From Escherichia coli (GTDB lineage: Bacteria; Pseudomonadota; Gammaproteobacteria; Enterobacterales; Enterobacteriaceae), in NCBI RefSeq assembly GCF_003991155.1, contig NZ_CP031293.1: 64,000 nucleotides of DNA; one strand, given 5' to 3'. Within the stretch, counting starts at the first letter, position 1, and every line of letters starts with the position of its first letter. The translations under genes were made by a program, and so were the position numbers. The notes beneath the pieces were generated by a model. It made no database searches. It was not told the origin of the DNA and was given only the letters and a program-made list of their open reading frames with translations. Below, piece by piece: positions 5,507 to 11,444 of the stretch.

Positions 5507-7540
5507 TCACGCGTCCGGGAACATCACGCTATGGCCCGGCGCTTCACGATGGAGATGGATAAAGTTAAGATGCCGCTCGTACTGGTCAAGAATATCGGTG
5601 ATCACCTGCTCTTTGCTGTAGTCCATCAGGTCGTTGCCCTGGCTGCCTTCTAACAGGAAGGTTTCCAGCCGGTAGTAGGTCGATTTACCGCTACGTGCGC
5701 GGTAGGTAAAGCCCGGCACCGAATATTGCTGCGGCCAAATCTGATAGACAAAGTTTTGCTCTTCGCCCATATGCACCAACAAATCCAGATGCCCCAACTG
5801 TTGTCCCTCTTCCGGCGGCAGGCTTTTTAGCTCCACGTACGCGCCGCGCAACCGCAACTCCTGCGCCACTTCTTCCATTGCCGGGTAACAGACCGTCTCC
5901 ATCATCTGTTTAGTGTAACGCGTGCCCGGATAATTCATCAGGCGCGAGAGACGTTTTTTCCAGCTCAGGCGATCCTGAAGCCCCAGCGGTCGCGGTGCGG
6001 TATCGCGGTTGGCACTTTCACGGCGGTAATCTTCTACCTTCAGAGATTTATACAACCCCGCCATCACGAAGAAGATCACAAAGCTGAACGGCAGGCCCAT
6101 AATCACCGTGGTGTTTTGCAGCGCGGATATCCCGTTGGTCATCAGCATGCCGAGCGTCAGCAGGCCAATCGCCACCGACCAGAAGACGCGCAGCCAGCCG
6201 GGGGCGTCGCTGTTGATATCTTTAAGCTGCGAGGTGAAATTCCCCAGCACCAGCGCCCCGGAGTCCGCCGAGGTCACATAAAACAGCAGGCCAGTAATGG
6301 TGGCGACGGAGGCGCTAAAGGTAAACGCCGGATACTGCGCCAGCAGGCTGTAGAAGCCGCGCTCCGGATGGACCATCGCTTCCTCGGCAAATGCCGCGCC
6401 GCCGTGGATGATTTCATACAGCGCGCTATTGCCGAACACCGAGAGCCATAACAGCGTGAAGGTAAACGGAATAATCAACGTGCCCAGCACGAACTGGCGA
6501 ATGGTACGCCCACGCGAGATACGCGCCAGGAACAAGCCGACAAACGGCGACCATGCCACCCACCATGCCCAGAAGAAGAGCGTCCAGTTATTCATCCACT
6601 CAACCGGACGGTCGAAGGCAAAACTGTTGAGCGTCATGCCCATAAAGCGATTCACATAGTCGCCAACATTCAGCACCAGTGCATTAAGCAGGAACGAAGT
6701 GTCGCCCATAAACAACACGAAAAGGATCAATCCCAGCGCCAGCGCAACGTTAAGTTCCGATAACACGCGAATGCCCTTATCGACACCGGAGGTGACAGAG
6801 ATCGTTGCGATGATCACCGACAAGGCGATCAGTGCCGCTTTCGCCGCCATTGAATCGGGAATATCAAACAGTACGCTCAAGCCATAGTTAAGCTGCACCA
6901 CACCAATACCGAGCGTAGTGGCAATACCGAAGATGGTGCCGATCACCGCTGCAATATCCACTGAGTGACCTATCGGCCCGTTAATCCGTTTACCGAAGAT
7001 CGGGTACAGCGCTGAGCGGATGGTGAGCGGCAAATTATAACGATAGCTAAAGTATCCGAGCGCCATGCCCATCAGCGCATACATCGACCAGCCGGTTAAG
7101 CCGTAGTGAAACAGCGTCCAGACCATCGCCTGACGCGCGGCCTCAATCGTCTGACCCGCGCCTTCCGGCGGCTGCATATACTGCGTTACCGGTTCGGCTA
7201 CGGAAAAGAACATCAGGTCGATACCGATCCCGGCAGCAAACAGCATCGCCGCCCAACTCAGCAGACTGAATTCCGGTTTTGATTGTTCTGGCCCGAGCTT
7301 CACCGAACCAAAACGCGAACAAGCGATACAGACCACAAAGACAATATAGAGCGTTGCCGCCAGCAGATAGTACCAACCGAAGGTTTTAGAAACCCAGTCC
7401 AGCGTGCGGTCAATCCACAGGGCCGAGAAGTCGCGAAACAGGATCGTTGTCAGGGAAAACAACAAAATCAGTCCGGCGGAAGTGTAAAACACCACCGGAT
7501 TGATTTTGTCCTTTTCCCTGCTGTGTGAAAGGTCTGTCAT
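5507..7540 (-). CDS. betT: high-affinity choline transporter BetT (BCCT family)
   Basis: 677-aa polytopic membrane protein with BCCT-family signature region; divergent from betIBA. Confidence 0.95.
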   Translation of the reverse strand: MTDLSHSREKDKINPVVFYTSAGLILLFSLTTILFRDFSALWIDRTLDWVSKTFGWYYLLAATLYIVFVVCIACSRFGSVKLGPEQSKPEFSLLSWAAMLFAAGIGIDLMFFSVAEPVTQYMQPPEGAGQTIEAARQAMVWTLFHYGLTGWSMYALMGMALGYFSYRYNLPLTIRSALYPIFGKRINGPIGHSVDIAAVIGTIFGIATTLGIGVVQLNYGLSVLFDIPDSMAAKAALIALSVIIATISVTSGVDKGIRVLSELNVALALGLILFVLFMGDTSFLLNALVLNVGDYVNRFMGMTLNSFAFDRPVEWMNNWTLFFWAWWVAWSPFVGLFLARISRGRTIRQFVLGTLIIPFTFTLLWLSVFGNSALYEIIHGGAAFAEEAMVHPERGFYSLLAQYPAFTFSASVATITGLLFYVTSADSGALVLGNFTSQLKDINSDAPGWLRVFWSVAIGLLTLGMLMTNGISALQNTTVIMGLPFSFVIFFVMAGLYKSLKVEDYRRESANRDTAPRPLGLQDRLSWKKRLSRLMNYPGTRYTKQMMETVCYPAMEEVAQELRLRGAYVELKSLPPEEGQQLGHLDLLVHMGEEQNFVYQIWPQQYSVPGFTYRARSGKSTYYRLETFLLEGSQGNDLMDYSKEQVITDILDQYERHLNFIHLHREAPGHSVMFPDA

Positions 7541-7668: not shown

Positions 7669-8256
7669 ATGCCCAAATTGGGGATGCAGTCGATCCGGCG
7701 CAGACAACTGATCGACGCCACGCTGGAAGCAATAAATGAAGTGGGCATGCACGATGCAACGATCGCGCAGATCGCCCGCCGTGCAGGCGTTTCTACGGGG
7801 ATCATCAGCCACTATTTCAGGGACAAAAATGGTCTGCTGGAAGCAACCATGCGCGATATCACCAGTCAGCTGCGTGACGCGGTTTTGAATCGATTACATG
7901 CACTTCCGCAGGGCAGTGCAGAGCAGCGATTACAGGCGATTGTTGGCGGAAACTTCGATGAAACGCAGGTGAGCAGTGCGGCGATGAAAGCCTGGCTGGC
8001 GTTCTGGGCCAGCAGTATGCATCAGCCGATGCTCTATCGTTTACAGCAGGTCAGCAGCCGTCGCTTGCTGTCGAACCTGGTGAGCGAGTTTCGCCGCGAA
8101 TTGCCGCGCCACCAGGCACAGGAAGCGGGCTACGGACTTGCCGCGCTGATTGACGGATTATGGCTGCGCGCGGCACTGAGCGACAAACCGCTGGATAAAC
8201 CTCTCGCACACTCGCTGACCCGTCACTTTATTACTCAGCATTTACCCACCGATTAA
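7669..8256 (+). CDS. betI: TetR-family repressor BetI
   Basis: ORF 7651-8256; start placed at [14 protein letters not shown] (195 aa); TetR HTH motif [20 protein letters not shown]. Confidence 0.9.
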
Positions 8257-8269
8257 CCGAGGAGACGTG

Positions 8270-9742
8270 ATGTCCCGAATGGCAGAACAGCAGCTTTATA
8301 TACATGGTGGTTATACCTCCGCCACCAGCGGTCGCACCTTCGAGACCATTAACCCGGCCAACGGTAACGTGCTGGCGACCGTGCAGGCCGCCGGGCGTGA
8401 GGATGTCGATCGCGCCGTGAAGAGTGCCCAACAGGGGCAAAAAATCTGGGCGGCGATGACCGCTATGGAACGCTCGCGTATTCTGCGTCGGGCCGTTGAT
8501 ATTCTACGTGAACGCAATGACGAACTCGCAAAACTGGAAACCCTCGACACCGGAAAAGCATATTCGGAAACCTCAACCGTCGATATCGTTACCGGTGCGG
8601 ACGTGCTGGAGTACTACGCCGGGCTGATCCCGGCGCTGGAAGGCAGCCAGATCCCGTTGCGTGAGACGTCATTTGTTTATACCCGCCGCGAACCGCTGGG
8701 CGTAGTGGCAGGGATTGGCGCATGGAACTACCCGATTCAGATTGCCCTGTGGAAATCCGCCCCCGCGCTGGCGGCAGGCAATGCAATGATTTTCAAACCG
8801 AGCGAAGTCACCCCGCTTACCGCGTTAAAGCTGGCCGAAATTTACAGCGAAGCGGGCCTGCCGGACGGCGTATTTAACGTGTTGCCGGGCGTGGGCGCGG
8901 AGACCGGGCAGTATCTGACCGAGCATCCGGGCATTGCCAAAGTGTCATTTACCGGCGGTGTCGCCAGCGGCAAAAAAGTGATGGCTAACTCGGCGGCCTC
9001 TTCCCTGAAAGAAGTGACCATGGAGCTGGGCGGTAAATCACCGCTGATCGTTTTTGACGATGCGGATCTCGATCTCGCCGCCGATATCGCCATGATGGCG
9101 AATTTCTTCAGCTCCGGTCAGGTGTGTACCAACGGCACTCGCGTCTTCGTTCCGACGAAATGCAAAGCCGCATTTGAACAAAAGATTCTGGCGCGCGTTG
9201 AGCGCATTCGCGCGGGCGACGTTTTCGATCCGCAAACTAACTTCGGCCCGCTGGTCAGCTTCCCGCATCGCGATAACGTGCTGCGCTATATCGCCAAAGG
9301 CAAAGAGGAAGGCGCGCGCGTACTGTGCGGCGGCGATGTACTGAAAGGCGATGGCTTCGATAACGGCGCATGGGTTGCACCGACCGTGTTCACCGATTGC
9401 CGCGACGAAATGACCATCGTGCGCGAAGAGATCTTCGGTCCGGTGATGTCGCTTCTCACTTATGAATCTGAGGACGAAGTGATTCGCCGCGCCAATGATA
9501 CCGACTACGGCCTGGCGGCGGGCATCGTGACGGCGGACCTGAACCGCGCGCATCGCGTCATTCATCAGCTGGAAGCGGGTATTTGCTGGCTCAACACCTG
9601 GGGCGAATCCCCTGCTGAGATGCCCGTTGGCGGCTACAAACACTCCGGCATTGGTCGCGAGAACGGCGTGATGACGCTCCAGAGTTACACCCAGGTGAAG
9701 TCCATCCAGGTTGAGATGGCTAAATTCCAGTCCATATTCTAA
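8270..9742 (+). CDS. betB: betaine aldehyde dehydrogenase BetB
   Basis: 490 aa from ATG at 8270 (ORF track begins at GTG 8267); aldehyde dehydrogenase motifs (ELGGKSP, catalytic-Cys region [13 protein letters not shown]). Confidence 0.95.
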
Positions 9743-9755
9743 CCAGGAGGTTTAT

Positions 9756-11444
9756 TTGCAATTTGACTACATCATTATTGGTGCCGGCTCAGCCGGCAAC
9801 GTTCTCGCTACCCGTCTGACTGAAGATCCGAACACAACCGTGCTGCTGCTTGAAGCAGGCGGCCCGGACTATCGCTTTGACTTCCGCACCCAGATGCCCG
9901 CTGCGCTGGCATTCCCGCTACAGGGTAAACGCTACAACTGGGCCTATGAAACGGAACCGGAACCGTTTATGAACAACCGTCGCATGGAGTGCGGACGCGG
10001 TAAGGGGCTTGGCGGGTCATCACTGATCAACGGCATGTGTTACATCCGTGGTAACGCGCTGGATCTCGATAACTGGGCGCAAGAACCCGGTCTGGAGAAC
10101 TGGAGCTACCTCGACTGTCTGCCCTACTATCGCAAGGCCGAGACTCGCGATGTGGGCGAGAACGATTACCACGGTGGCGATGGCCCGGTGAGCGTCACCA
10201 CCTCCAAACCCGGCGTCAATCCGCTGTTTGAAGCGATGATTGAAGCGGGCGTGCAGGCGGGCTACCCACGCACGGACGATCTCAACGGCTATCAGCAGGA
10301 AGGTTTTGGCCCGATGGATCGCACCGTCACGCCGCATGGCCGTCGCGCCAGCACCGCGCGTGGCTATCTCGCTCAGGCCAAATCGCGCCCTAACCTGACT
10401 ATTCGTACTCACGCCATGACCGATCACATCATTTTTGACAGCAAACGCGCGGTGGGCGTCGAGTGGCTGGAAGGCGACAGCACCATTCCGACCCGCGCGG
10501 CGGCGAATAAAGAAGTGCTGTTATGTGCAGGCGCGATTGCTTCACCGCAGATCCTGCAACGCTCCGGCGTCGGCAACGCTGAACTGCTGGCGGAGTTTGA
10601 TATTCCGCTGGTGCATGAATTACCTGGCGTCGGCGAAAATCTTCAGGATCACCTGGAGATGTATCTGCAATATGAGTGCAAAGAACCGGTTTCCCTCTAC
10701 CCTGCCCTGCAGTGGTGGAATCAGCCGAAAATCGGTGCGGAGTGGCTGTTTGGCGGCACCGGCGTTGGTGCCAGCAACCACTTTGAAGCAGGCGGATTTA
10801 TTCGCAGCCGTGAGGAATTTGCGTGGCCGAATATTCAGTACCATTTCCTGCCAGTGGCGATTAACTATAACGGCTCGAACGCAGTGAAAGAGCACGGCTT
10901 CCAGTGCCACGTCGGATCGATGCGCTCGCCAAGCCGTGGGCATGTGCGGATTAAATCCCGCGACCCGCACCAGCATCCAGCGATTCTGTTTAACTACATG
11001 TCGCACGAGCAGGACTGGCAGGAGTTCCGCGACGCAATTCGCATCACCCGGGAGATCATGCATCAACCGGCGCTGGATCAGTATCGTGGCCGCGAAATCA
11101 GCCCCGGTGTCGAATGCCAGACGGATGAGCAGCTCGATGAGTTTGTGCGTAATCACGCCGAAACCGCCTTCCACCCATGCGGTACGTGCAAAATGGGGTA
11201 CGACGAGATGTCCGTTGTGGATGGCGAAGGCCGCGTGCACGGGCTGGAAGGATTACGCGTAGTCGATGCGTCAATTATGCCGCAGATTATCACCGGCAAT
11301 CTGAACGCCACGACGATTATGATTGGCGAGAAAATGGCGGATATGATTCGCGGGAAGGATGCGTTGCCGAGGAGCACGGCGGGATATTATGTGGCAAATG
11401 GGATGCCGGTGAGAGCGAAAAAAATGAGTCGTGATGTGAACTGA
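9756..11444 (+). CDS. betA: choline dehydrogenase BetA (GMC oxidoreductase), apparent TTG start
   Basis: Product begins at [20 protein letters not shown] (FAD-binding GxGxxG); the codon at that position is TTG preceded by GGAGG; ORF track extends upstream to 9711. Confidence 0.9.

Follow-up and report, generated by a model that had tools for sequence, protein, structure and literature searches.

The closest described counterpart of the gene considered here is betA of Escherichia coli K-12 (b0311, 556 amino acids [aa]), which is the same gene in the same operon, with the same TTG start and the same Shine-Dalgarno (SD) sequence as in the E. coli DNA that we analyzed. The two sequences are identical over 52 nt, from the betB stop to betA codon 12, and carry the same annotated N terminus. 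Their products differ by a few amino acid substitutions and in length, 562 aa here versus 556 aa in K-12, as a result of an A7 versus an A6 run. The E. coli BetA entry in UniProt and GenBank is the 556-aa protein beginning MQFDY, a length that fits this TTG, and the assignment is decades old. The TTG is thus the start already annotated in reference genomes, and as such it is known and ordinary.

Like betA, the annotated UUG-initiated genes of E. coli combine a canonical near-cognate start codon, read by fMet-tRNA, with a good SD sequence. betA differs from infC, whose AUU start has an autoregulatory, IF3-linked role; to our knowledge, no autoregulatory or IF3-linked role has been described for betA. 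BetA orthologs of Pantoea, Cedecea, Kosakonia, Tatumella, Rosenbergiella, Mangrovibacter, and Trabulsiella start with ATG at the homologous codon, downstream of betB and two to three residues before the conserved DYI(I/V)IGAG motif. Compared with E. coli, these ATG orthologs mostly have weaker SD sequences (GAGGAA or GAGGAG, −6 to −8.4 kcal/mol) and longer betB-betA spacers. UUG makes up ∼3 to 4% of annotated E. coli starts and is one of three strong start codons in this organism, supporting initiation at 10 to 100% of the AUG level in reporters (bioRxiv 10.1101/063800).

The window, a 64,000-nt stretch of E. coli contig NZ_CP031293.1 (RefSeq assembly GCF_003991155.1), contains the classical betT/betI-betB-betA arrangement with betT divergent, as read from the open reading frames (ORFs) of the window and the RefSeq annotation of identical loci (Table 1). 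Mechanically listed ORFs begin upstream of the RefSeq starts of two of these genes: that of betB begins at GTG 8267, next to the RefSeq ATG at 8270, and that of betI begins at ATG 7651, with the RefSeq start at ATG 7669. The betI-betB spacer (8257 to 8269) and the betB-betA spacer (9743 to 9755) are both exactly 13 nt long, and in both, the SD sequence begins 1 to 3 nt after the upstream stop. The equal spacers suggest a uniformly coupled operon design. betB and betA have the short gap and the SD sequence beside the upstream stop that are expected of a coupled pair, and the two genes may be translationally coupled.

Table 1. Features of the bet locus and of the betA initiation region (window coordinates)
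Feature	Position	Strand	Description	Source
betT CDS, choline transporter	5507..7540	−	Divergent from betIBA	ORF list; RefSeq of homologous loci
betI CDS, repressor	7669..8256	+	ATG start	RefSeq mapped; sequence
betB CDS, betaine-aldehyde dehydrogenase	8270..9742	+	ATG start, SD GAGGAG	RefSeq mapped; sequence
TGA closing the betA frame upstream	9696..9698	+	In frame with betA	Translation; upstream scan
Rejected alternative TTG inside betB	9711..9713	+	In frame; would add 15 aa to BetA	
TAA stop of betB	9740..9742	+		Sequence; RefSeq betB end 13 nt before betA
SD of betA	9745..9751	+	AGGAGGT	Sequence; duplex energy with 16S 3' end
TTG initiation codon of betA	9756..9758	+		Sequence; RefSeq CDS start in three strains; conservation
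betA CDS, choline dehydrogenase	9756..11444	+	562-codon ORF, stop included (TGA 11442..11444)	Translation; profile match

We are confident that betA initiates from the UUG at 9756, with the ribosome recruited by AGGAGGU, and that this strong-SD UUG start is a character of a whole clade and not a feature of one strain. An upstream scan found TTG 9711 to be the only other in-frame canonical start between the TGA that closes the frame and position 9756, and no in-frame ATG or GTG lies between that stop and the FAD-binding motif, after which comes the first internal Met of BetA. With two TTG codons as the only canonical starts in this interval, a non-ATG start is unavoidable. A first-pass annotation of the window, made from the sequence alone, had also placed the start at TTG 9756, a call now borne out by RefSeq, by conservation within E. 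coli, by the starts of orthologs, and by species in which this TTG is the sole available start. It had supposed that an in-frame ATG existed 45 nt upstream, which was mistaken: the codon at 9711 to 9713 is TTG, and the nearby ATG at 9716 to 9718 is a Met codon in the C-terminal tail of betB, out of frame with betA. Since no ATG or GTG competes, the case for the TTG start is stronger than was first thought.

The flanks of the codon are those of a genuine UUG start, with an SD sequence at functional spacing. AGGAGGT begins 3 nt after the betB TAA, within an intercistronic gap of 13 nt, and ends 4 nt (TTAT) before the TTG. Both the GGAGG upstream of the TTG and the conserved BetA N terminus after it, as described in the first-pass annotation, can be read directly in the sequence. 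The 8-nt spacing given there holds only when counted from the center of the SD sequence; from the last G of the GGAGG core (9746 to 9750), the distance is 5 nt.

Translated from TTG 9756, the protein scored 1026.5 bits against the NCBIfam betA equivalog TIGR01810 (cutoff, 732.1), with profile position 1 falling on residue 4, and 999.9 against NF002550 (PRK02106; cutoff, 605). The FAD-binding GxGxxG motif is GAGSAG at residues 9 to 14 counted from the TTG; profile score, N-terminal FAD motif, and operon context all identify the protein as a GMC oxidoreductase of the BetA type. At the other end of the gene, positions 11418 to 11424 hold an A7 run in the window and in strain 06-00048, where K-12 and SK1144 have A6. 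The A6 form reads AAA AAA TGA and encodes 556 aa, while the A7 form reads AAA AAA ATG AGT CGT GAT GTG AAC TGA and encodes 562 aa, adding 6 codons and a C-terminal MSRDVN. This difference could be natural variation or a homopolymer sequencing artifact.

The start codon was compared across genera by scanning species-representative genomes with the BetA protein and taking the best 80 of ∼395 loci (81 to 97% identity). These 80 include no Escherichia genome, and the comparison within E. coli rests on a separate collection of E. coli genomes. In 77 of these 80 other species, betA starts at the codon homologous to 9756, with TTG in 33 and ATG in 44; in the remaining three, all Pseudomonas, an ATG lies two codons upstream of that codon. 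TTG is found in Pseudocitrobacter, many Enterobacter, Huaxiibacter, Lelliottia, Leclercia, the Klebsiella oxytoca group, Raoultella, Citrobacter amalonaticus, and Citrobacter sedlakii. The ATG loci come from Trabulsiella, Pluralibacter, Cedecea, Pantoea, Kosakonia, Tatumella, Rosenbergiella, Mangrovibacter, Erwinia, one Pseudomonas, and one uncultured Enterobacteriaceae genome. An in-frame stop lies no more than 6 nt upstream of the start in 16 of the ATG species and occupies the preceding codon in 11, which pins the BetA N terminus to the homologous position. From the other side, in 10 TTG loci (seven of the Klebsiella/Raoultella group and three Citrobacter), the stretch from the upstream in-frame stop to the conserved domain contains no canonical start but the TTG.

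On a rough neighbor-joining tree of BetA, rooted on Pseudomonas, ATG is ancestral and TTG is derived in a core-Enterobacteriaceae clade, with ∼4 changes by parsimony. The TTG start is an old trait that has become fixed in a clade of Enterobacteriaceae and is not strain specific. The ATG starts of Trabulsiella and Pluralibacter, which lie within or next to the TTG clade, show that TTG is not obligatory. Two other placements were observed in the course of this comparison. BetA of Pseudocitrobacter vendiensis (locus L004, 1960 to 3656) is 97% identical to the E. coli protein, and the 40 nt upstream of its start match E. coli base for base, a nearer match than in any Enterobacter or Citrobacter; the similarity suggests that the bet locus was recently transferred horizontally or that the two are very closely related. 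Enterobacter sp. strain BIGb0383 (locus L045) combines a TTG start with an upstream sequence of the Enterobacter type, yet in the rough tree its BetA groups with Mangrovibacter and not with the other Enterobacter, which could be a tree artifact or the mark of a recombinant gene.

SD strength was assessed from the duplex that the 20 nt preceding each start form on folding with the 16S 3' end, ACCUCCUUA. In every one of the 34 TTG-start sequences (the window plus 33 loci), [A/G]GGAGGU pairs in a 7-bp duplex at −11.0 kcal/mol. The 47 ATG-start sequences, mostly with GAGGAA or GAGGAG, have a mean of −7.9 kcal/mol (range, −3.8 to −12.1). The betB-betA gap is 13 to 14 nt in 33 of the 34 TTG-start loci, that is, in all measurable ones, and 19 to 27 nt in those ATG-start loci where it was measured, many ATG loci having no measurable gap. 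The bases between SD and start vary among TTG species (TTTAT, TTTTT, CATTT, CATGT, TTTCA, CTCA), while the T of the TTG does not. The association of TTG with a strong SD is real as a description of these sequences, although it is phylogenetically clustered and reflects few independent events (∼4 switches on the rough tree). Within the operon of the window, betA has the strongest SD (−11.0 kcal/mol), followed by betB (−8.9 kcal/mol) and betI (−6.0 kcal/mol). RNA folding from −40 to +45 around the betA start found no significant structure (z = −1.0), and regulation of this start by structure was dropped as a candidate, since the site is not occluded.

Given the observed start position, SD sequence, and 13-nt distance, initiation would be expected to proceed by recruitment of a 30S subunit to AGGAGGU, the subunit being a fresh one, one from a ribosome that has finished translating betB, 13 nt upstream, or both. 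fMet-tRNA would then pair with the UUG at 9756. The likely net result is moderate translation of betA, somewhat below that of betB. It is plausible that the TTG lowers BetA translation relative to BetB, as the first-pass annotation had proposed; any change in the BetA:BetB ratio, in extent and in direction, is a prediction, and the very strong SD of betA probably compensates for the TTG in part.

A label-free proteome gives mean values of 90.7 for BetA (two peptides) and 143.1 for BetB (seven peptides) (PMC6544118, supplementary file 6). From these values BetA stands at ∼0.63 times BetB in one data set, a ratio that is compatible with a modest reduction of BetA and says nothing about its cause. 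We found no betA entry in the accessible portions of the supplement text of a TetRP start-site study (PMC4909307) or of an N-terminomics study (PMC13245402). A literature search, in which the gene name betA is confounded with "beta," found no direct evidence on the BetA N terminus and none from initiation profiling. Without osmotic or choline induction, expression of betA is low.

A real TTG start may still be a neutral one, its T fixed by drift in the core-Enterobacteriaceae ancestor and tolerated because the strong SD, possibly together with coupling to betB, would already supply sufficient BetA; we rate this account just short of an even chance. It agrees with ATG being both ancestral and the majority state outside the clade, with the modest BetA:BetB difference (∼0.63 in one proteome), and with the 10 to 100% of AUG-level initiation that UUG gives in reporters (bioRxiv 10.1101/063800), while the return of ATG in two genera inside or adjacent to the TTG clade, Trabulsiella and Pluralibacter, implies that both states are viable. 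Drift fits less well with the first base of the codon, which is the same in all 34 sequences and in no fewer than 5,180 E. coli records, although spacer bases vary. ATG is only a single T-to-A change away, yet the T has been kept, and the perfect co-occurrence of TTG with a 7-bp SD looks like compensation. The invariant T suggests purifying selection. One form that such selection might take is a set point, in which the UUG and the 7-bp SD, placed 13 nt after betB, would hold BetA below BetB such that toxic betaine aldehyde does not accumulate. We consider this selected set point unlikely; under it, BetA synthesis might be specifically sensitive to IF3 or to ribosome availability during osmotic stress.

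A start at TTG 9711, within the 3' end of betB, would give a 577-aa protein with a 15-residue leader and is very improbable. Downstream of the in-frame stop no canonical start comes earlier than this codon, the mechanically listed ORF begins at it, and 24 of the 34 TTG-start sequences (the window plus 23 loci) share it. However, betB coding accounts for its conservation, as the codon overlaps the betB codons Q-V-E-M, and at this position Klebsiella and Raoultella have a stop codon and three Citrobacter loci a non-start codon. RefSeq does not place the betA start there. The statement in the first-pass annotation that the upstream codon has no SD is right in that no good one is present, but a weak, badly spaced AGGUG-like match (−3.8 kcal/mol) does lie 13 nt upstream. 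Its description of the extension as nonconserved agrees with the profiles, since the 15 aa gain no matched position in any choline dehydrogenase profile. Together, the ATG loci pinned by stops and the TTG loci with a sole start exclude the 577-aa reading. Raw ORF callers that extend to 9711 overcall betA by 15 codons.

Comparison with other E. coli genomes, which the first-pass annotation had named as the check on its call, left the start at 9756 in place. The RefSeq betA coding sequence starts at locus position 2607, equivalent to window position 9756, in SK1144, K-12 C3026, and 06-00048; all three have TTG with identical flanks, 06-00048 having been the most divergent match. In a collection of 5,426 complete E. 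coli genomes, a 251-nt query around the site matched 5,183 records from 5,179 genomes, and a 57-nt query centered on the start codon was 100% identical in 5,143 of the 5,183 records. Versions of the 57-mer carrying ATG or GTG had no perfect match among these records; every record fell in the 95 to 99% identity band, with exactly one mismatch in the best matches listed. The other 40 records depart from the 57-mer at one point or more, and in none of them is a T-to-A or T-to-G change at the start the sole difference. A 30-mer query (9742 to 9771) showed the exact SD-TTG core to be kept in 5,180 of 5,183 records. Since a match to this query was reported only with an exact 28-nt word, no more than three records can depart from the core at 9744 to 9769, a segment that covers the SD, the spacer, the TTG, and the opening betA codons. 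A strain-specific single-nucleotide polymorphism or a sequencing error in an ATG start, the outcome that the first-pass annotation had said would overturn its call, can be set aside as next to impossible, given that the ATG and GTG 57-mers lack a perfect E. coli match, that the exact core is so widely kept, that K-12 itself carries the TTG, and that this codon is TTG in 33 other species. Were the three records outside the core match to carry ATG, it would still be the rare variant.

The collection also showed variation in the locus as a whole. The betB-betA junction had no match in 247 of the 5,426 complete genomes, the bet locus being absent or disrupted in ∼4.6%, and 10 junction matches were on records labeled as plasmids. 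The betT gene of strain 06-00048 is a truncated pseudogene according to its annotation.

The analysis confirms that the existing betA annotation is right. Heterologous expression of E. coli betA, for example in plant stress tolerance work, requires that ATG replace the native start. The pairing of TTG with a perfect SD, versus ATG with a weaker one, looks like an example of compensation between start codon and ribosome-binding site, and the genus-level pattern of TTG and SD is a possible small test case for studies of operon stoichiometry. If the set point that holds BetA below BetB were true, it would account for the retention of the T throughout Escherichia, Enterobacter, Klebsiella, and Citrobacter with ATG one mutation away.
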